A stretch of DNA of 64,000 nt from Squalus acanthias (taxonomy: Eukaryota), in the NCBI GenBank assembly GCA_030390025.1, contig CM059447.1, positions 46,624,001 to 46,688,000 of the forward strand, written 5' to 3'. The position numbers and the translations under genes were made by a program. The first letter of the stretch is position 1; every line of letters begins with the position of its first letter. The notes below the pieces were generated by a model that made no database searches, was not told the origin of the DNA, and worked only from the letters and a program-made list of their open reading frames with translations. Of this stretch, positions 13,910 through 42,029 are shown piece after piece.

Positions 13910-14235
13910 GTCGGAACACGAGGAGGCGCTGATGGTCTTGAGAAGAGGCGAGCTCAGGGAGCCGTGGCTGACGCTGCAGGAATAGCTGGAGCCCTTGCTC
14001 CAGGCGGCGGCGGGGACTCTCAGGTAACTGCTCAGGCTGTAGGTTTGATCGCTGTCCGGGGACACGGCGCCTGTCGTCACCCCGCTGTCTGTCTCTTGGC
14101 CATCCACGCTCCAGCGGAGCCGCACCAAGCCCGGCTTAAAGTGACTGACCAGGCAGGACAGAGTGGCCGTGCCCGAGCCAATTTCTTCCGAGGAGGGACG
14201 CAGGAGAAGGACCGAGGGGCTCCGATCCTCGCTGC
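13910..14235 (-). pseudogene. Ig light chain cluster 2, constant exon; stop codon displaced by insertions
   Basis: Acceptor CACACAG|GC; open C domain with 10 nucleotide differences from the cluster 1 C exon by manual count; after SCSD it reads on as FPKRRGLHVA* (stop at 13877). Confidence 0.9.
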
Positions 14236-14439
14236 CTGTGTGTGGGGGGAGAGAAAATCTCACTGTGAGTCTCGGTTATTTCTCTGATGGCCCAAACACA
14301 GAATTATTAACGTGCGTTGGAGGAAAGTCAAAAACAAGATTTAAAACTTCATTTTAATCCTAAGGAGAGGCACTAGATGTTACATTTTATTTCAATCCAG
14401 CTCCCTGTAAATAGAAAGACAGATAGAAGCAAAGAATGA

Positions 14440-15870
14440 AGATAGGAAGAAAGATTTGCATTTCTCCAGCGCCTTTCACCACCTCAGGACGTCCCAAAGC
14501 ACTTTACAGCCAATGAAGTACTTTTTGAAGTGTAGTCACTGTTGTAATGTGGGAAACACATCAGCCAATTTGCGCACAGCAAGCTCCCACAACCCGCAAT
14601 GTGATAATGACCCAGATCATCTGTTTTTAGTGATGTTGATTGAGGGATAAATATTGGCCCCAGGACACCGGGGAGAACTCCCCCTCTGCTCTTCTTCCAA
14701 TAGTGGCCGTGGGATCTTTTATGTCCACCTGAGAGAGCAGACGGGCCTCGGTTTAAAGTCAGTGCAGCGTTCCCTCAGTACTGCCCCTCCGACAGTGCGG
14801 CGCCCCCTCAGTACTGCCCCGCCGACAGTGCGGCGCTCCCTCAGTACTGCCCCTCCGACAGTGCGGCGCTCCCTCAGTACTGCCCCGCCGACAGTGCGGC
14901 GCTCCCTCAGTACTGCCCCTCCGACAGTGTGGCGCTCCCTCAGTACTGCCCCTCCAACAGTGCGGCGCTCCCTCAGTACCGCCCCTCCGACAGTGCGGCG
15001 CTCCCTCAGTACCGCCCCTCCGACAGTGCAGCGCTCCCTCAGTACTGCCCCTCCGACAGTGCGGCGCTCCCTCAGTACCGTCCCTCCGACAGTGCGGCGC
15101 TCCCTCAGTACTGTCCCTCCGACAGTGCGGCGCTCCCTCAGTACTGCCCCTCCGACAGTGCAGCGCTCCCTCAGTACTGCCCCTCCGACAGTGCGGCGCT
15201 CCCTCAGTACCGCCCCTCTGACAGTGCGGCGCTCCCTCAGTACTGCCCCTCTGACAGTGCAGCACTCCCTCAGTACTGCCCCTCCGACAGTGCGGCGCTC
15301 CCTCAGTACTGCCTCTCCGACAGTGCGGCGCTCCCTCAGTATGGCTCCTCCGACAGTGCGGCGCTCCCTCAGTACTGCCCCTCTGACAGTGCGGCGCTCC
15401 CTCAGTACTGCCCCTCCGACATTGTGACGCTCCCTCAGCACCGCCCCTCCGATAGTGCGGCGCTCCCTCAGTACCACCCCTCAGACACTGCGGCGCTCCC
15501 TCAGTACCGCGCCTCCGACAGTGCGGCGCTCCCTCAGTACCACCCCTCCGACACTGCGGCGCTCCCTCAGTACCGCGCCTCCGACAGTGCGGCGCTCCCT
15601 CAGTACGGCCCCTCCGACAGTGCGGCGCTCCCTCAGTACTGCCCCTCCAACAGTGCGGCGCTTCCTCAGTACTGCCCCTCCGACAGTGCGGCGCTCCCTC
15701 AGTACCGCCCCTCCGACAGTGCGTCGCTCCCTCAGTACTGCCCCTCCGACAGTGCGGCGCTTCCTCAGTACTGCCCCTCCGACAGTGCGGCGCTCCCTCA
15801 GTACCGCCCCTCCGACAGTGCGGCGCTCCCTCAGTACTGCCCCTCCGACAGTGCGGCTCTCCCTCAGTAT
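14440..15870 (-). mobile_element. DeuSINE with expanded 33-bp array in the cluster 2 J-C intron
   Basis: Same SINE body as at 10130; array about 14760-15870. Confidence 0.85.
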
Positions 15871-15888
15871 AATGAGAGAGTCAGCTAC

Positions 15889-15925
15889 TCTTTATACTCA
15901 GGACGATCCTCGGTCCGAGGATCCA
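15889..15925 (-). pseudogene. Ig light chain cluster 2, J segment (degenerate)
   Basis: WILGPRIVLSIK + 1 nt (37 bp); FGxG is degraded to LGPR; weak donor GTAGCT. Confidence 0.78.
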
Positions 15926-15964
15926 CACAGAGTGGTGTTACAATGGGACGGGTTACCGAAAACC
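15926..15964 (+). other. J recombination signal sequence (23-bp spacer)
   Basis: Heptamer CACAGAG (15926-15932), exactly 23 bp, nonamer CCGAAAACC (15956-15964), abutting J. Confidence 0.8.
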
Positions 15965-16293
15965 CAGGGCGGGGAAGAAAGAGAAGGAAATATGAATAAC
16001 CTGCCCTTTCGCACATTCTCTTTCACATTCCACCTTACACGGGGTCGGATTGCTTACAGCCCGAGAAGCACCTTCTAAATATCTTGTCGGTAAAGCGCGA
16101 GGATCTCAGTGTTGGCACACCCGGGCACCACATTGAGTTCAAGGATTTGTCAAAAAATAAATTGAAATATCACATTGCAATTGCAGCGAGCTGTGCCGGG
16201 AAATGACAGAAGAAAGATTTGGGAAAGGCATGACACATTTGCAAGCGTTAATGTTTCAGTACCTGTTGCTGTCGAGAGCAGCTCTCTTCGTGC

Positions 16294-16322
16294 GGTTTCT
16301 GTATTGCCCCGGTGTTGCCGTG
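16294..16322 (-). other. Degenerate V recombination signal sequence (13-bp spacer)
   Basis: Heptamer CACGGCA (16322-16316), 13-bp spacer, nonamer ACAGAAACC (16302-16294), directly 3' of V. Confidence 0.75.
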
Positions 16323-16596
16323 TATAAAGACCCCTCGCTGAGCTGTCCCAAGTCCGACAGTAACAGACGGCAGATTCACTGGGCACCGAGGCTCCGATGG
16401 TCAGCGTGTAACTGTTAATGGATCATTCTCCGTGTCGTATCTTATCCCCCCACCACGGCGCTTCCCCCCGAGCTGCTGTCCACATCCCCACTGCCCACGT
16501 TCTCGTCCTCCGTCGCACACTGTAACCGGGCGGTCTGACCCGCGGAGACAGGCTCGGCTATTGGGGACTGATTGAGGACAGGAGCCGCCAGGACAC
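16323..16596 (-). pseudogene. Ig light chain cluster 2, V pseudogene (unrearranged)
   Basis: GVLAAPVLNQSPIAEPVSAGQTARLQC..., then a deletion removing WYRQ/CDR2 and an in-frame stop; resumes NSYTLTIGASVPSESAVCYCRTWDSSARGLY; leader remnant near 17695-17720 begins TTGGCTCC where cluster 1 has ATGGCTCC. Confidence 0.88.
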
Positions 16597-16764
16597 CTTC
16601 ATTGAAAGGGGGAAAAAAATCAACCCATTCAGAGACTTGGAGCAAAATGCACACGGATGGATCAACAGGCTGGCCACCAAAGGCTTTTGCTTCTCAATCC
16701 TTCAACCAATAAAAAAGTCGAGCACATTCCGCGAGTAGATCTCACAGCCTCACCTGTTACATGC

Positions 16765-17692
16765 TTCATCAGAAGACAAGAATTTGGAGCAGGAGTCGGC
16801 CATTCGGCCCCTCGAGCCTGCTCCGCCATTCAATAAGATCTTGGCTGATCTTCGACCTCAACTCCACTTTCCCGCCCGATCTCCATATCCCTCGATTCCC
16901 CTCGAGTCCAAAAATCTATCGATCTCAGCCTTGAATAGACTCAACGACTGAGCATCCACAGCCCTCTGGGGCAGAGAATTCCAAAGATTCACCACCCTCT
17001 GAGTGAAGAAATTCCTCCTCATCTCAGTCCTCAATGGCCGACCCCTGATCCTGAGACTGTGACCCCTGGTTCTAGACTCTCCAGCCAGGGGGAAACAGCC
17101 TCTCAGCATCTACCCTGTCAATCCCCCTCAGAATCTTGTATGTTTCAATGAAATCACCTCTCATTCTTCTAAACTCCAGAGAGTATCGGCCCAATCTGCT
17201 CAATCTCTCCTCATAGGACAGCCCTCTCATCCCAGGAATCAATCTCGTGAACCTTCGTTGCACCGCCTCCAAGGCAAGTACATCCTTCCTTAGATAAGGA
17301 GACCAAAACTGTGCACAGTACTCCAGGTGTGGTCTCACCAAGGCCCTGTACAATTGTAGCAAGACTTCCTTACTCTTATACTCCAACCCCCTTGCAATAA
17401 AGGCCAACATGCCATTTGCCTTCCTTATTGCTTGCTGTACCTGCATGCCAACTTTCTGTGTTTCTTGCACGAGGAGACCCAAATCTCTCTGAACACCAAC
17501 ATTTGAAAGTTTCTCACCATTTCAAAAATATTCTGTTTTTCTATTCTTCCTACAACCTCACTTTTCCCTACATTGTACTCCATCTGCCACCTTACTGCCC
17601 ACTCACTTAGTCTGTCTATAGCCCTTTGCAGACTCTTTTGCGTACTCCTCACAGCTTACAGTCCCACACAGCTCACAGTCTCAGCAGATCCG
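16765..17692 (-). mobile_element. CR1 insertion at the cluster 2 leader splice donor
   Basis: CR1 ORF2 C-terminus 17072-17482; flanked by a 14-bp direct repeat CACCTGTTACATGC at 16751-16764 and 17693-17706. Confidence 0.85.
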
Positions 17693-17834
17693 CACCTGTT
17701 ACATGCATCGCCGGAGCCAATTCCCCCGGAGATGTGTGAACGGTAACTTGTGAGGGCTCGACGGGCTATAACCCGGGAATCCAATCGAGTTACAGCCTGC
17801 CAAGGGGAAGACCAGTGATTGGATATTGGGCAGT

Positions 17835-17842
17835 ATGCAAAT
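17835..17842 (-). promoter_or_regulatory. Octamer of the IgL cluster 2 promoter
   Basis: ATGCAAAT on +, same orientation and similar spacing to the leader remnant as in cluster 1; TTATAG at about 17766-17771. Confidence 0.7.
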
Positions 17843-18630: not shown

Positions 18631-18881
18631 TTTACAATCCGAAATGAGCAATTAGGTTTTTAAAAAAAGATTATTCATCCTCGGGGTGTGGGTGTCACGG
18701 GGCAAGACCGGCATTTATTGTCCCTCCCCGGGGCTACTTCAGAGGGGCAGTTAAGAAGCAGCCACGTTGGTTTGGGACTGGAGTCACATATAGGCCTGTT
18801 TGTGCTGTGCCTTCTATCTAATCCACTCAATGTCCCTTTAAGTAAAGACGGAACAGTTTAAGTTCATGGCAGCATTTCATG

Positions 18882-18887
18882 TTTATT
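18882..18887 (-). terminator. Candidate polyadenylation signal of IgL cluster 1
   Basis: AATAAA on the minus strand about 300 bp after the C-exon stop. Confidence 0.6.
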
Positions 18888-19187
18888 AAGAGCTGTGTTA
18901 CATAAGTTCCCAATCACAATATGATCACAGACTAAAGGGAAATCTGTCCCCATTCTACACACAGTGAAAGTTTACACACAAGATATTGGGGAGAGTTGTA
19001 CAGACAGTTCCATCTCACAATCATTTCGTTCTCTTCTGATATTATTAAACATTCGGATTTTGCCAAAAATTGAAATTGCTACAGTGATTACATTGCAAAA
19101 AAAAAGGCGGATTGCACACATCGAATGATCTGTTTCATTATATTAAACACTAGCAAAAATCAAACTCCACTGCCAACTCGCACCGCC

Positions 19188-19516
19188 TCAGTCTGAACAC
19201 GAGGAGGCGCTGATGGTCTTGAGAAGAGGCGAGCTCAGGGAGCCGTGGCTGACGCTGCAGGAATAGCTGGAGCCCTTGTTCCAGGCGGCGGCGGGGACTC
19301 TCAGGTAACTGCTCAGGCTGTAGGTTTGATCGCTGTCCGGGGACACGGCGCCTGTCGTCACCCCGCTGTCTGTCTCTTGGCCATCCACGCTCCAGCGGAG
19401 CCGCACCAAGCCCGGCTTAAAGCGACTGACCAGGCAGGACAGAGTGGCCGATCCCGAGCCGATTTCTTCCGAGGAGGGAGGGAGGAGAAGAACCGAGGGG
19501 CTTCGATCCTCGCTGC
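19188..19516 (-). CDS. Ig light chain cluster 1, constant exon (type I/NS5/sigma-cart-like)
   Basis: Acceptor CACACAG|GC; GSEDRSPSVLLLPPSSEEIGSGSATLSCLVSRFKPG...YSLSSYLRVPAAAWNKGSSYSCSVSHGSLSSPLLKTISASSCSD*; C1-set domain closely resembling horned shark type I light-chain C; spliced L+VJ+C = 729 nt, 242 aa. Confidence 0.95.
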
Positions 19517-19574
19517 CTGTGTGTGGGGGGAAAAGAAAATCTCACTGTTAGTCTCTTAATGTTCGGCTCCAGCA

Positions 19575-20400
19575 ACTAATATTTATTATGCATTTTTAAC
19601 AGATCTTTAATATTTTCATTATTAATTGATATTATTTATTGTGGATTTTTAACCGATCTTTAATATTTGCATTATTAATTGATATTATTTATTGTAGATT
19701 TTTAATAGATCTTTAATATTTGTATTATTAATTGATATTATTTATTGTGGATTTGTAATAGATCTTTAATATTTGTATTATTTATTGATATTATTTATTG
19801 TGGATTTTTAATAGATCTTTAATATTTGTATTATTTATTGATATTATTTATTGTGGATTTTTAATAGATCTTTACTATTTGTATTATTAATTGATATTAT
19901 TTATTCTCCTCCTTCTTGGACTCGAGAGAATTGAGAAAATGTTATATCTTTAAGATGCTCCGTAATCATTGTTCTTAATTATGCAAATATTGTAAATCTT
20001 TATATACTTCTTTCTAATATTTAGCTAAATGTATTTGTTCTTTTAATTGAATAGTTATATTTATATATTTGTACATTTAAAAATTATTGACATTGATTTA
20101 ATTGGTTATATTTCCCATTGTGATTTATTTGTTATGATTCCATTCAGTTCTTATATTTAATCTTAATATTTATCTTTCAGATACTCTGTGTTTAGATCGA
20201 GCATTTATAGAATGTATTATTGAAATACTATTTATAGTCAGCCTCCAATTTATTTATATATTCAATATTTATGTATATATAATTTAATAGTCTTATCAAT
20301 GAAGTACCAGCTAAAGATGTACTTTAAAAAGTTTTGAAACTTTCGTTAAAAAAAAGTTTTGAAACTTTCATTAAAAAAAACTTTAGAAACTTTTGAGAGC
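19575..20400. repeat. Extremely AT-rich J-C intron segment with about six 53-bp tandem units and an octamer
   Basis: Unit approximately ATTTTTAATAGATCTTTAATATTTGTATTATTAATTGATATTATTTATTGTGG at 19580-19905; ATGCAAAT at 19981-19988. Confidence 0.75.
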
Positions 20401-20559
20401 CCTGTCAATGTCCCAATTCATATCTTGGTTCACTATTAACCCTGTGAAGTGCGGACCAAATGTTCTATTATATACGGCAATCAAGCCCACTATAGACCCA
20501 ATCCCTCCAGCATTAGATGGTGCCGATCCTGCTTAAAGGCACTTTGGAACGTGGGAACG

Positions 20560-20945
20560 CTGTATTCCCTGGAATTTAGAAGGTTAAGGGGTCATCTGAT
20601 CGAAGTTTTCAAGATATTAAGGGGAACAGATAGAGAGAAACTATTTCTGCTGGTTGGGGAGTCTCGGACTAGGGGGCAGAGTCTAAACATTAGAGCCAGA
20701 CCTTTCAGGAGTGAAGTTAGGAAACACTTCTACACACAAAGGGTGGTAGAAGTTTGGAACTCTCTTCCGCAAACGGCAATCGATGCTGAGTCAGTTGTCA
20801 GTTTTAAAACGGAGATTGATTTTGTTAACCAAAGGTATTGAGGGATACAGGGCAAAAATATGGAGTTAGGTCGCAGATCAGCCATGATCTCATTGAATGG
20901 CGGAACAGGCTCGAGGGGCTGAATGGCCTCCTCCTGTTCCTAGGT
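20560..20945 (+). mobile_element. CR1 3' fragment
   Basis: LYSLEFRRLRGHLIEVFKILRG...FYTQRVVEVWNSLP. Confidence 0.85.
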
Positions 20946-21938
20946 GACACAGGAACAGAATTTGTAAAGGAACAGAAGGTGGGAAAAAGAAATCGGATAA
21001 GCTGTCGAAGCACGAGTCATTCAATTTCTTTGTTCTATGAACAAATTGTATTCCAAACACATGAAATACTCTTTGCTCCCGCGCTCCAGAAATCGCAGGG
21101 TCCTCGAGTTGAGGACGTGGAATCAGTCAGAGGACCAGAGAAAGCCGTCGGGGGGGGGGAGTATTGATAAGAATGTGGAATGGGCAGAAAAGCGGCGTCT
21201 GCAGTTTAATGCCAGTAATTGTGAGCTGGTGGAGTCTGGTTGAAAATAAAAAGTAATCGGGGACTCTGCATAAAAACCAGGTGACGGCGAATCGGCAGCC
21301 CATCCCCCCCCCCCCCCCCGACTGACTTCAGTGACAACAAAAATGGTTTAACACTCATCGCCCAAAGTCAAGATCCAGCCCATTGAGGGAAGATTGAGGG
21401 ATGTGGAAGAGGCGATGGATTTGAGAGTTTAGGTTGACAAAACATTAAAAGAGGCACCCCAAGTGGATAAAAAATATCCTGGAATATTGGCTTTCATATC
21501 AAGAGGTAATAGTCGAGGCATAATGGAGAATCTACATACACCCTGAGCAGGACCACAGTTGGGGCAGTGCCAGCAATTGTGGGCTCCGCGCTATAGGAAG
21601 GATGTCGAGGCAATAGAGAGGGCGCAGGGCGGATTCACTGGGATAAGGACATTTAGAAAGTGTGTCAGGACGGAGGAGATTTTGGGATGATTGATAGAGG
21701 CGTTTCAACGTTATGGAAGGATGGGACGGAGCAGAGAGAGAGACAGATTGTTCCCTGTAGTTGAAGGGGGCTCAAGAACAGCGGGGGACGTAGATAGTGG
21801 AAAGTACCAGGGGGATCCTGTGAGTGAAGCCGAGACGACACTTAAGAGATTTAGGGTAGATAGATGGGAGAAGGAAAGGAGAGGGGAATAGGGTGTGGGA
21901 GTAGGACTGTGGATGTGGAGAACAACAACGATTTGTAT

Positions 21939-22549
21939 TGTGGAAGTGTATTTTTTACTTGGACACAAAATGGCTTCCTAGACACAGAATAAGAGATACA
22001 AAATGGCTGACTCTGACTTGCCTGGGAAAAGATAAAGTTGTTTATAACTTCTCATGGTGATGAATTTACACTTTGCAGACTATGCTGTTTTCGCAGCAAC
22101 TGGTACAGAACAAAAAGGCTTCTTCTAATCAACTTGAGATAACCAAGGACTAGTGAAGTAAACATTTAGCCTTTGATTCCAGATGGCCTGGTGGGAGGAG
22201 AACAAGCTTCCTCCGTGAGAAGAGATTAGCTAGCCTTATCTCAAGGTATTCCTGCTCCTTTAACCTTTCTGACCTTTCAGAAAGTCCTCCTTAAACATAC
22301 ACATACTCCTTTTTAACTTGTTTTTGCAGGCGCTATGCTTTTAATCAACTGTGATTTAATACCATGTCATGTGATATGGAAAGCTTGTATTTTCAGTGTA
22401 TAAAGATGTTGCATTTTTCTGTAATTCTTCAGAGTGTCATCGTAGCCTTTGACTACATGCATTCTCCTTGTGAGCAAGTAAATAATAAAGCCTGTCTTTG
22501 ACGATACTTTATGTTTCAAGAGTCTTACTCGGAAGTCGAAACTTCGACA
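21939..22549 (+). mobile_element. Solo LTR (611 bp) in the J-C intron
   Basis: TG...CA ends with 8/9 inverted termini (TGTGGAAGT / ACTTCGACA); 4-bp TSD GTAT at 21935-21938 and 22550-22553; TATAAA at 22399 and AATAAA at 22484; it splits an L2 tail. Confidence 0.8.
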
Positions 22550-22843
22550 GTATTTATACAGTGCCTTTAAAAGAAGTAAAATGTCCCAAGGTGCCCAGGA
22601 GCGATTATCAGACATAATTTGACACCGAGCCACATAAGGAGATATTAGGACAGGCGAACAAAAGCTGTGTCAAAGAGGGAGGTTTTGAAAGAGGAGAGAG
22701 GCGGAGAGGTTTAGGGAGGGAGTTCATAAACACCAACAGGGATAGAACGGCCAGTTTCTAAGCTGTAATATATATTATCAACATTATCCGCCAGAGTAGA
22801 GCGAACACAGGACGAAAACCGCATTGATATGGATAACGCGGCC

Positions 22844-22999
22844 AATCTCTTAACTCAATGCTCACTTACCCTGTACACTCAGAATCTCTTAACTCAATGC
22901 TCACTTACCCTGTACACTCAGAATCTCTTAACTCAATGCTCACTTACCCTGTACACTCAGAATCTCTTAACTCAATGCTCACTTACCCTGTACACTCAG
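22844..22999. repeat. 4 x 39-bp perfect tandem repeat spanning the J 3' end and splice donor
   Basis: AATCTCTTAACTCAATGCTCACTTACCCTGTACACTCAG at 22844, 22883, 22922 and 22961. Confidence 0.95.
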
Positions 23000-23337
23000 A
23001 GTCGTCCCCGCTCCGATAATCTTGAAGCTCCAGATCGCGCAGTAATAGACGGCGGAGTCGGCGAGCTCCATGTCCCCCACCGTTAAAACGTAGCTGTTCT
23101 CCGAAGCGTCCCTGGACGGTGCAAAGCGGTCGTTGAAGCCGCTCCCTCGCGTGATGCTGCCGTCGATGTTGTGGTAGAGCACAAACGCCGGCGCTTCGCC
23201 CAGCGCCTGGCGGTACCAGCGCACGTCGAGGTTGCCCACGGTGCCGTTCACCACCAGGCACTTTAACCGGGCGGGGCCACCCGGCGGCACGGGTTGGAAA
23301 GCCGGGGACTGGATCAGGACTGGGTCCCCCAGCGCAC
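22987..23337 (-). CDS. Ig light chain cluster 1, germline-joined VJ exon (type I/NS5/sigma-cart-like)
   Basis: Acceptor TTGAAG|GT; open frame GALGDPVLIQSP...LKC...WYRQ...DSAVYYCAIWSFKIIGAGTTLSVQ; both Ig cysteines and the Trp are present; no RSS or spacer between V and J; donor G|GTAAGT; 351 nt, phase 1-1. Confidence 0.95.
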
Positions 23338-23652
23338 CTTCAACAGCAAACAGAATAAAGACATCATTTGAGGCCCTTCGTGAATTGACTTGAACCTTCT
23401 AAGCCGCGTAAAAGATCTCGGAAACACCAGCGGAGGTGGGGTTTTTTTGCGGGGGGGGAAAGGCTGCTCACTTACGCTTACAGTTCCACCCCCCCTCCCG
23501 ATCTCCCGCGCTGGTTACAGCCAAAGTGCGCTGGATTCTGGGCGCAGAAACCAGCTGGAAACTCTACCCCCGATTCGATAGAACTTGACTCGATCCAGCG
23601 CCTAATCTAACGAGACTTGGTGCGCGTCAGCGGCAGTGAGGAAGCCTCTCAC

Positions 23653-23701
23653 CCGTTAACTGGATCAACAGAGCCCACAGGAGATGCGTCGATGGAGCCA
23701 T
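23653..23701 (-). CDS. Ig light chain cluster 1, leader exon (MAPSTHLLWALLIQLT-G)
   Basis: ATG at 23701; 16 codons + 1 nt of a hydrophobic signal peptide; phase-1 donor G|GTGAGA; lies downstream of an octamer and a TATA-like box. Confidence 0.88.
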
Positions 23702-23823
23702 TTCCGCCGATAAACCCCAACACCAGTTGCGCCAATGGCCGGAAAGAACGAGGCAGAGAAGACGGCGTAACTACCGGACCTGGTGCGGTGCGGTGTGGCT
23801 GATTGAGCGGAGCCATCGCTCCC

Positions 23824-23848
23824 TATTTATCAGCCCCGAGATGCAAAT
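23824..23848 (-). promoter_or_regulatory. Ig promoter of cluster 1: octamer ATTTGCAT plus TATA-like GATAAATA
   Basis: ATGCAAAT on + at 23841-23848 (ATTTGCAT on the sense strand, the light-chain orientation), about 140 bp upstream of the leader ATG; AT-rich box at about 23824-23831. Confidence 0.8.
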
Positions 23849-38700: not shown

Positions 38701-39784
38701 AACACTCCCAGGGCAGGTACAGCACGGGTTAGATACAGAGTAAAGCTCCCTCCACACCGTCCCCCATCAAACACTCCCGGGGCAGGTACAGCACGGGTTA
38801 GATACAGAGTAAAGCTCCCTCTACACCGTCCCATCAAACACTCCCGGGGCAGGTACAGCACGGGTTAGATACAGAGTAAAGCTCCCTCTACACTGTCCCA
38901 TCAAACACTCCCAGGGCAGGTATAGCACGGGTTAGATACCGATTAAAGCTCCCTCTACACTGTCCCCATCAAACACTCCCAGGGCAGGTACAGCACGGGT
39001 TAGATACAGAGTAAAGCTCGCTCTACACTTTCCCCATCAAACACTCCCAGGGCAGGTACAGCACGGGTTAGATACAGAGTAAAGCTCCCTCTACACTGTC
39101 CCCATCAAACACTCCCAGGGCAGGTACAGCACGGGTTAGATACAGAATAAAGCTCCCTCTACACTGTCCCATCAAACACTCCCAGGGCAGGTACAGCAAG
39201 GGTTAGATTCAGAGTAAAGCTCCCTCTACACTGTCCCATCAAACACTCCCAGGGCAGGTACAGCACAGGTTAGATAAAGAGTAAAGCTCCCTCTACACTG
39301 TCCCCATCAAACACTCCCAGGGCAGGTACAGCACGGGTTAGATACAGAGTAAAGCTCCCCCTACACTGTCCCTTCAAACACTCCCAGGGCAGGTACAGCA
39401 CGGGTTAGATACAGAGTAAAGCTCCCTCTACACTCTCCCATCAAACACTCCCAGGGCAGGTACAGCACGGGTTAGATACAGAGTAAAGCTCCTTCCACAC
39501 TGTCCCATCAAACACTCCCAGGGCAGGTACTGCACGGGTTAGATACAGAGTAAAGCTCCTTCTACACTGTCCCCATCAAACACTCCCAGGGCAGGTACAG
39601 CACGGGTTAGATACAGAGTAAAGCTCCCTCTACACTGTCCCATCAAACATTCCCAGGGCAGGTACAGCACGGGTTAGATACAGAGTAAAGCTCCCTCTAC
39701 ACTGTCCCATCAAACACTCCCAGGGCAGGTACAGCACGGGTTAGATACAGAGTAAAGCTCCCTCTACACTGTCCCATCAAACAT

Positions 39785-42029
39785 CAAACCAACCGCAACA
39801 TTGTCATCAAACCAGCGGACAAAGGAGGAGCCATCGTCATACAGAACAGAACGGACTATTGTAAAGAAGCATACCGACAACTGGACAACCAGGAACACTA
39901 CAGACAGCTACCCGCAGATCCGACCAAAGAACACACCCGCCAACTCAATAGACTGATCAAGACCTTCGATCCAGACCTTCAAAACATCCTACGCGCTCTC
40001 ATCCCACGTACTCCCCGCGTGGGAGACTTCTACTGCCTCCCAAAGATACACAAAGCCAACACACCCGGATGTCCTATCGTATCAGGCAATGGAACCCTGT
40101 GTGAGAACCTCTCTGGATACGTCGAGGGCATTCTGAAACCCATCGTACAGGGAACCCCCAGCTTCTGTCGCGACACTACAGACTTCTTACAGAAACTCAG
40201 CACCCACGGACCAGTTGAACCAGGAACACTCCTTGCCACGATGGACGTATCGGCACTCTACACCAGTATCCCCCACGATGACGGCATCGCTGCAACAGCC
40301 TCAGTACTCAACATCAACAACAGCCAATCTCCAGACGCCATCCTACAACTCATCCGCTTCATCCTTGACCACAATGTCTTCACCTTCGACAACCATTTTT
40401 TTACCCAAACACACGGAACAGCCATGGGGACCAAATTCGCACCCCAATACGCCAACATCTTCATGCACAAGTTCGAGCAAGTCTTCTTCGCTGCACAGGA
40501 CCTCCAGCCAACGCTGTACACCAGATACATCGACGACATTTTCTTCCTTTGGACCCATGGCGAAGGATCACTGAAAAGACTACACGATAACATAAACAAG
40601 TTCCATCCCACCATCAAACTCACCATGGACTACTCCTCAGAATCGGTCTCATTCCTGGACACACGAATCTCCATCAAAGACGGACACCTCAGCACTTCAC
40701 TCTACCGCAAGCCCACGGACAACCTCACGATGCTCCACTTCTCCAGCTTCCACCCTAACCATGTTAAAGAAGCCATCCCCTATGGACAAGCCCTGCGAAT
40801 ACACAGGATCTGCTCAGACGAGGAGGAACGCGATGGACACCTACGGACGCTGAAAAACGCCCTCGTAAGAACGGGATATGACGCTCGACTCATCGATCGA
40901 CAGTTCCGACGGGCCACAGCGAAAAATCGCATAGACCTCCTCAGAAGGCAAACACGGGACACAACCAACAGGGTACCCTACGTCGTCCAGTACTTCCCCG
41001 GAGCGGAGAAACTACGCCATGTTCTTCGCAGCCTTCAACATGTCATCGATGACGACAAACACCTCGCTAAGGCCATCCCCACGCCTCCACTACTTGCCTT
41101 CAAACAGCCGCCTAACCTCAGAAGTACCATCGTTCGCAGCAAATTACCCAGCTTTCAGGATAACAGCGACCACGACACCACACAACCCTGCCATGGCAAA
41201 CTCTGCAAGACATGCCAGATCATCAACACAGATACCACCATCACACGTGAGGACACTACCCACCAGGTACATGGTACATACTCATGTGACTCGGCCAACG
41301 TTGTCTACCTCATACGTTGCAGGAAAGAATGCACCGCGGCATGGTACATCGGCGAGACCATGCAGACACTGAGACAACGTATGAACGAGCACCGCGCAAC
41401 AATCGCCAGGCAGGATTGTTACCTCCCAGTCGGGGAACACTTCAGCAGTCAAGGACATTCAGCCTCGGATCTGCGGGTAAGCGTTCTCCAAGGCAACCTT
41501 AGAAACACACGACAACGCAAAATCATCGAGCAGAAACTGATAGCCAAGTTCCGCACTCATGAAGACGGTCTCAATCGGGATCTTGGGTTTATGTCACGAT
41601 ACATGACGTGATCCAGACTCGAGTCGTCGTTAGCTTGTTCACAGATGTGATTCCCAGTAAAAAAGTAAAAATTTTCCCAGTAAAAAAGTAAAAATTTTAA
41701 AGCTTTTCGTTTTACATACAGACGGCAGCTTTTGACACGTTAGAACCCCTGCGACTACACCTCATTGTCTCAGTTGTATCTTGCTATGTCTTTGATGTGG
41801 TACCTTCCTGGCTGACTTAATTAACTTTATCACACCTCGGCAGATAGTCAGGATGATTTAATTTAGTGGTCTGCAATTGTAAGGTACACATGCTTTGTTT
41901 TCTATCTATATATTCTGTATCTAATTTACTTCACCTGAGGAAGGAGCAATCGATAGCTCCAAAAGCTTGTGATTTCAAATAAAACTGTTGGACTATAACC
42001 TGGTGTTGTGCGACCTCTCAATTTTGTCC
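39785..42029 (+). mobile_element. Penelope-like retroelement, 5'-truncated, with RT + GIY-YIG ORF (open 39788-41611)
   Basis: IKPADKGG, LPKIHK, MDVSALYT, GTAMG and RYIDDIF RT motifs; C-terminal NVVYLIRC...YIGET...RQRMNEH GIY-YIG domain; 3' pLTR-like tail. Confidence 0.95.
41931..41972 (+). ncRNA. Hammerhead motif with core mutation (GAAA to AAAA)
   Basis: TCAC-CTGAGGA-A-GGAGC(AATCGATA)GCTCC-AAAA-GCTT-GTGA. Confidence 0.6.

Follow-up and report, generated by a model that had tools for sequence, protein, structure and literature searches.

The window analysed here, a 64,000-nucleotide stretch of Squalus acanthias DNA (assembly GCA_030390025.1, contig CM059447.1, positions 46,624,001 to 46,688,000), carries on its minus strand an intact immunoglobulin light-chain gene whose variable (V) and joining (J) segments are fused in the germ line. 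An open frame of 242 amino acids runs through a leader exon, the fused VJ exon, and a constant (C) exon, with every junction of the GT..AG type and in phase 1 (Table 1). The original prediction, made from the letters alone, of a phase-compatible gene with octamer and TATA box is borne out by the exon coordinates, the splice joints, and the Pfam domains, save that the TATA-like element is not canonical; the AATAAA signal is also present, but 300 bases past the end coordinate of 19,188 given for the gene. The octamer lies 147 bases from the ATG, versus 139-141 bases in 27 paralogues, and the leader is 80-91% identical to paralogue leaders (five of six clusters, those with a listed match). An upstream ATG at 23,816 was ruled out as the start, having neither a hydrophobic leader nor a compatible donor. 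By IMGT numbering, complementarity-determining region 3 (CDR3) is AIWSFKI (7 residues), the J motif is IGAGT, and the sole glycosylation sequon of the chain, N-G-T at residue 47, lies in CDR1, all as first read. The chain contains five cysteines, and Tyr, Gln, Pro, and Tyr are present at what we take to be the interface positions of the light-chain variable domain. V and J are joined with introns and promoter retained, and a scan of the window for recombination signal sequences (RSSs) found only one, at the J segment of a neighbouring cluster, and none inside the joined gene.

The gene is spliced, and its join is shared by several organisms. Sixteen listed sequencing runs matched it, four of which (X6, X7, X13, and X15) were compared with the window contig by contig. 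In six probable RNA runs, which represent two studies and two organisms, 0.26-0.50 of the gene's words are present, approximately the expectation for exons only. X6 and X7 each yielded a contig that skips precisely the 315-base leader intron. The X7 contig, whose VJ exon departs from the window by one silent change, joins the J end to the first letters of the C exon; it exits at 22,986, so the donor used is the first of the four copies created by a tandem repeat, and the later donors, if used, would run into a stop. The X6 contig, from organism B, also passes from the J end into C, with three J bases changed. These three, among the last four J bases at 22,987-22,991, may represent an allele, conversion, or tandem hypermutation. 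The contigs cannot reveal hypermutation, and their depths (27 versus 182 and 26 versus 73 for a family leader contig) are unfit to rank expression. DNA contigs from two further organisms (X13 and X15, organisms C and D) align without a break over 22,969-23,546, with 48 and 50 differing letters and 18 gap letters (∼91% identity); over the promoter they show ∼20 differences in 250-266 letters, and neither has a joint within VJ. Because the contigs of X6, X7, X13, and X15 all cross the V-J junction without an internal joint, the join is inherited and common to several organisms. Thus, both the spliced transcripts and the recurrence of the junction in other individuals, which had been proposed as checks, were found. 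The gene's words are also present at 0.99 in the DNA of two samples, either of which may be the source of the assembly. A second X15 contig matches 127 bases on the J side (22,963-23,089) with 20 differences and possibly derives from a further related joined gene in organism D.

The C domain is 98% identical to that of a Squalus acanthias light-chain cDNA (P0003), 83% to horn-shark, and 76% to skate type I chains, versus 44-54% for other isotypes of the same genome. Because it is nearest to sigma-2 C domains, we assign the gene on sequence grounds to the sigma-2 isotype, for which type I, NS5, and sigma-cart are synonyms in the accessible parts of PMC5192425 and PMC4279169. The organization agrees, with a single V-J-C cluster and one C exon ending in a terminal Cys. 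The V domain falls within the sigma-2 plus multi-V side of the tree (support 99/92), and its top 40-odd matches in its own genome are all sigma-2; a forced grouping of V with lambda was not rejected (p 0.39), making the tree alone a weak guide to the assignment of V. Identity of C thus gives the isotype, but V trees do not fix the place of V within sigma-2. The earlier reading of a germline-joined type I/NS5 gene with a divergent V holds, as V is at most 59% identical to its paralogues.

The joined state is the rule in this family. The genome contains about 55 matches to the C exon at 78-100% identity, and the paralogue set comprises 58 V loci, namely all sigma-2-type V matches on contigs C3553, C185, C3349, and C24 (the last being that of the gene). 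All 58 V exons are joined and none has an RSS; CDR3 is 8 residues long in 57 of them and 11 in one, and the 8-residue junction is present in 10 of 10 Squalus cDNAs. That the 57 paralogues (on C3553, C185, C3349, and at 48.84-48.86 Mb of C24) have one 8-codon junction in common suggests that they expanded from a single germline join; C24 and C3553 share some identical copies, which may be artefactual duplicates of the assembly. In little skate, the abstract of PMC2192082 reports no unjoined gene among at least 89 type I clusters. Among full-length database chains, 52 of 66 could be parsed, giving CDR3 lengths of 8 (28 chains), 10 (15), 11 (5), 6 (3), and 9 (1) and, at J position 118, Phe in 31, Tyr in 16, Ile in four, and Leu in one. 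Several features singled out by the original prediction are therefore ordinary: independence from RAG is common to all 58 paralogues, the 7-residue CDR3 is one codon shorter than the family norm, and a residue other than Phe at J118, as in IGAG, occurs in 21 of the 52 chains. The neighbouring V used as a yardstick for CDR3 length indeed reads CRTWDSSARGLY but belongs to a pseudogene cluster and is the wrong comparator. Among the CDR3, J118, and the sequon, only the sequon is truly rare, being found in CDR1 of none of 63 database chains and one of 42 paralogues; multi-V receptors have it at the corresponding site in 10 of 30 domains.

The divergence of the gene from this family is a mosaic. V is single-copy, with the best paralogue in the genome 59% identical. 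Its synonymous divergence (dS) to 28 paralogues is 0.76-1.09, a value inflated by its GC content at third codon positions (GC3; 0.85 versus about 0.62 in the family), and its nonsynonymous divergence (dN) is 0.29-0.36; within the family dS has a mean of 0.13 and a maximum of 0.29. Residues rare in sigma-2 occupy 35 of 99 V positions. Squalus cDNAs match this V at only 56-59 of 99 positions, whereas cDNA P0003 retains 60-76 identities with 14 chains from sharks of other species and from rays. The leader-V intron measures 315 bases versus 151-154 in paralogues and is not alignable to theirs (local score of 19, below shuffled maxima of 22-28). The last 300 bases of the J-C intron are 54-56% identical to paralogues, which reach 80-94% among themselves; otherwise both introns are unalignable, in contrast to two paralogue clusters that align over 7.1 kb at 89%. 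The C exon differs from five paralogues by a dS of only 0.02-0.05, and the first 400 bases of the 3′ untranslated region (UTR) match paralogues at 87-91%, as paralogues match one another, before identity drops to 47-51% over the next 200 bases. That ∼750 bases (18,793-19,540) remain at family identity within a gene that is otherwise old points to gene conversion or chimaeric recombination. It is likely that the C exon and 3′ UTR were overwritten from the main family by conversion while the divergent V was kept apart.

Database searches retrieved no closer V. A word-index search with V returned at most two Narcine multi-V proteins, no VJ above 56% was present among 66 full-length chains found with C, and HMMER over representatives at 50% identity gave at most 54% among the 150 matches listed, where an orthologue might sit inside a sigma-2 cluster. 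The Atlas search with V found only generic V-set clusters, and the PDB search only generic antibodies. No paper on this gene was found in a literature search outside which most subscription literature lay, including the potentially relevant dogfish repertoire of Smith et al. 2012.

Comparison with organisms C and D bears on the age and constraint of V. A partial list of 22 sites, outside which lie 55 further rows and 18 indel rows, contains 12 amino acid and seven silent codon differences. Five of the 12 restore commoner sigma-2 residues (V2, R28, E30, S36, and T69), so the long branch of V appears partly recent; three leave the consensus, and four do neither. About half of the changes are in or beside CDR1 and CDR2. 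By the 12-to-7 count in this partial list, V seems weakly constrained. The chain had also been proposed to be invariant, which is correct in that its sequence does not vary within an individual prior to any hypermutation; between organisms, however, its V differs at many amino acids.

The RSS-bearing neighbour is a split sigma-2 cluster that has decayed. Its V has deletions, a frameshift, and a stop; it lacks an intact leader, and its J and donor are degenerate. Its C exon is 96% identical to that of the intact gene and has a 2.6-kb insertion at the stop codon. A genome search found no second copy of its V-J interval. The genome yielded no split sigma-2 cluster other than this distant pseudogene, and no close split precursor of the join survives.

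Other loci were noted in passing. A joined VJ-C light-chain-like gene of the same genome (G000:C284:278783-281115) is divergent in both domains, with 41% identity in V and 48-50% in C; it has the J motif FGNGV, and one tree places its V with an Amblyraja chain. Contigs C262, C3676, and C2076 of G000 carry many joined sigma-2-like VJ exons with 6-residue junctions that match multi-V proteins of rays and sharks (P0001 and P0095-P0154). Several of these have transmembrane segments and tyrosine-motif tails, and the literature search found no paper on them. Elsewhere in the window, a 640-amino acid open frame (39,689-41,611, plus strand) resembles a reverse transcriptase with a GIY-YIG-type end, presumably of a Penelope-like element.

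Table 1 Features of the joined sigma-2 gene and its neighbour (window coordinates)
Feature	Position	Strand	Basis or remark
V promoter octamer, ATTTGCAT	23841..23848	-	sequence scan
TATA-like GATAAATA, not canonical	23824..23831	-	putative element, sequence only
Leader exon, 49 nt (16 codons + 1 base), MAPSTHLLWALLIQLT-G	23653..23701	-	spliced in runs X6 and X7
Leader-V intron, 315 bases	23338..23652	-	skipped exactly in contigs of X6 and X7
Germline-joined VJ exon, 351 nt, GC3 0.85	22987..23337	-	Pfam V-set, 5e-13
Perfect 39-bp tandem repeat, 4 copies, duplicating J end and splice donor	22844..23000	.	repeat confirmed by sequence
J-C intron	19517..22986	-	unrelated to paralogue introns except near acceptor
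AT-rich 53-bp array inside J-C intron	19580-19905	.	repeat analysis
Sigma-2 C exon, 329 nt with stop, C-terminal Cys	19188..19516	-	Pfam C1-set, 5e-23
3′ UTR, AATAAA at 18887	18793..19187	-	end of tract at family identity
Neighbouring split sigma-2 cluster, pseudogene	13910..17842	-	sequence inspection
Neighbour octamer	17842-17835	-	scan
Neighbour V with RSS	about 16597-16322	-	sequence
Neighbour J with 23-RSS	near 15960-15890	-	sequence
Neighbour C	14236-13910	-	sequence

Given this structure and splicing, the sigma-2 isotype, the joined state of the family, and the mosaic of divergence, the gene probably works as an ordinary antibody light chain whose binding site is pre-set and whose V was kept apart while its C exon and 3′ UTR were converted. 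The octamer promoter would drive it in B cells without rearrangement, the family-type leader would allow secretion, and the family-type C domain with its C-terminal Cys disulfide would permit pairing with heavy chains. The V domain, with its short CDR3 and CDR1 glycan, would supply a germline specificity absent from the 8-residue family. The join itself may have been made by RAG in the germ line of an ancestor, as established for nurse-shark kappa genes in the accessible part of PMC2193156. Several points weigh against this account. The RNA nature of the runs is a guess, although the intron-skipping joints do fit RNA. Chimaeric recombination would yield a mosaic equal to that ascribed to conversion. 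The counterparts in organisms C and D read Leu at Tyr42, and their frames may not be open. Lastly, a special role could be signalled by the single copy, by its distance of 2.2 Mb to the other clusters on C24, by the rare sequon, and by the five residues common with carpet-shark chains.

These carpet-shark chains (XP_043535225, XP_020376430, and XP_059499042) have the 6-residue CDR3 EVWGYI. They share four to five of the rare V residues D5, D38, R40, L46, and F52 with the gene, whereas none of the remaining 74 of 79 sequences shares more than three; D38 and R40 show only silent changes among the listed differences of organisms C and D. Such kinship, if real, would suggest a specialised early-life chain, the orthologue or analogue of the joined nurse-shark sigma-2 chain, which together with a joined IgM heavy chain would form a fully pre-determined neonatal antibody. 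The nurse-shark chain is described as expressed early and as the preferred partner of IgM1gj in the available text of PMC5192425 and PMC4279169. A joined heavy-chain VDJ, CARTVTGWAMDFWGQG, is present in the dogfish genome in three near-identical copies (G000:C29:8940360, C449, and C559, found by exact-pattern matching), and other joined heavy-chain genes may have been missed. The C29 copy, the one of the three examined, is followed by four C1 exons, which presumably are those of IgM, whereas IgM1gj has three. V trees were built from thinned sets of 59, 34, 20/25, and 39 rows, with long or redundant rows dropped. Relative to the free tree, those constrained to join the gene with the carpet-shark chains scored +6.3 log units, equal without outgroups, -2.4 with outgroups, and +0.4, that is, at least as well in three of four tests. 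Approximately unbiased (AU) tests rejected no alternative, the grouping of the gene with its own family having p values of 0.46, 0.37, 0.16, and 0.27. Both lineages are long branches, one free tree with outgroups placed V elsewhere than with the carpet sharks, and the basal placement in an early free tree is unreliable, as constrained trees later scored better. In addition, V is identical to the carpet-shark group at 55-56 of 99 positions, below the 56-59 of 99 for Squalus cDNAs, and the carpet-shark group is a presumed counterpart of nurse-shark NS5-16, which has a 6-codon CDR3. Orthology with the carpet-shark chains is thus possible, and we regard the specialised early-life role as a distinctly less probable account than that of an ordinary light chain. 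A bolder form is more doubtful still: the VJ exon would be the relic of one germline join made before dogfish and carpet sharks diverged, and would be orthologous to the IgM1gj partner and sister to the multi-V receptors, kept for a fixed innate antibody while its C exon was renewed by gene conversion. If so, a RAG germline event would be dated before the main shark radiations, and a receptor family would be tied to a domesticated light-chain exon.

It is unlikely that the gene is a satellite cluster under relaxed selection, still transcribed but drifting to loss like its dead neighbour, as the excess of amino acid over silent differences, the many rare V residues, and the repeated J donor might suggest. 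Its frame, signals, and cysteines are intact though time sufficed to erase intron similarity, dN is about 0.3 against a dS of about 0.8-1.0 to paralogues, and it is present in six probable RNA runs, the two of them that were compared contig by contig both showing splicing. Far less probable is the surrogate light chain of the original prediction, a VpreB/lambda5-like partner at the pre-B checkpoint. A gene with an octamer promoter that needs no rearrangement could serve there, and the slot is empty in that no surrogate chain has been described in fish. The gene, however, encodes one V-J-C polypeptide without unique tails, its V is not tightly conserved, and dozens of paralogues are equally independent of RAG. 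It is also located on C24, whereas TOP3 matches lie on C18 and on C13, the latter at 51.6 Mb in the vicinity of lambda-type clusters (52.9-54.8 Mb). According to PMC9614664, VpreB1/2 and IGLL1 are reported from eutherians only, where they are individual genes, each with a tail of its own, next to TOP3B/lambda. Somatic rearrangement captured in the assembly is ruled out by the lack of any split V closer than 59% as a precursor, the presence of the gene in the DNA of two samples, and the identical junction in contigs of other samples with a joined counterpart in two more organisms, and a retrocopy by the retention of the promoter and both introns. A never-split receptor of the UrIg/UrIg2 type was likewise rejected, as those have VJ plus three C1 domains in the available text of PMC12227049 and the gene has one C exon with a stop.

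The favoured reading, an ordinary light chain with a pre-set site, makes a modest addition: a divergent, unannotated V lineage from a shark in which, as in skates, every sigma-2 chain appears to be pre-joined, together with a clear case of V and introns diverging while the C exon stayed at the level of the family. If the carpet-shark link is true, conservation of a fixed neonatal antibody would extend across shark superorders, and the purpose of germline-joined antibodies would become testable with one defined heavy-light pair.

Compared with known systems, the gene is closest in plan to the Squalus acanthias sigma-2 cDNAs AES93000-AES93010, with the same leader type, octamer, V-J-C cluster, and joined state, the 98% identical C domain, and a V that aligns up to CDR3 without insertions or deletions; it differs in its V identity of only 56-59 of 99, a CDR3 of 7 rather than 8 residues, the CDR1 sequon, unrelated introns, and single copy. 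Little skate type I, as given in the abstract of PMC2192082, resembles the dogfish family in being wholly joined, expressed, and present as many clusters, but that abstract contains no lone divergent V on a homogenised C. VpreB/lambda5, in the part of PMC9614664 available, share with the gene the absence of somatic rearrangement but are two tailed genes beside TOP3B/lambda. The multi-V membrane receptors (XP_069786758 of Narcine, and those of C262 and C3676) resemble the gene in their sigma-2-like joined VJ exons, which have a 6-residue junction and a DV-x-W motif; they are 43-47% identical to the V described here, have tandem V domains and no C1, and differ from this V, which keeps sigma-2-type residues at seven diagnostic positions. 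The joined chains of nurse and carpet sharks are also joined in frame, carry a sigma-2 C domain and the shortest junctions of the isotype (6 residues in the carpet-shark chains versus 7), and share the five rare V residues, but in nurse shark a single expressed sigma-2 gene is joined and two others rearrange, whereas this genome has dozens of joined ones.

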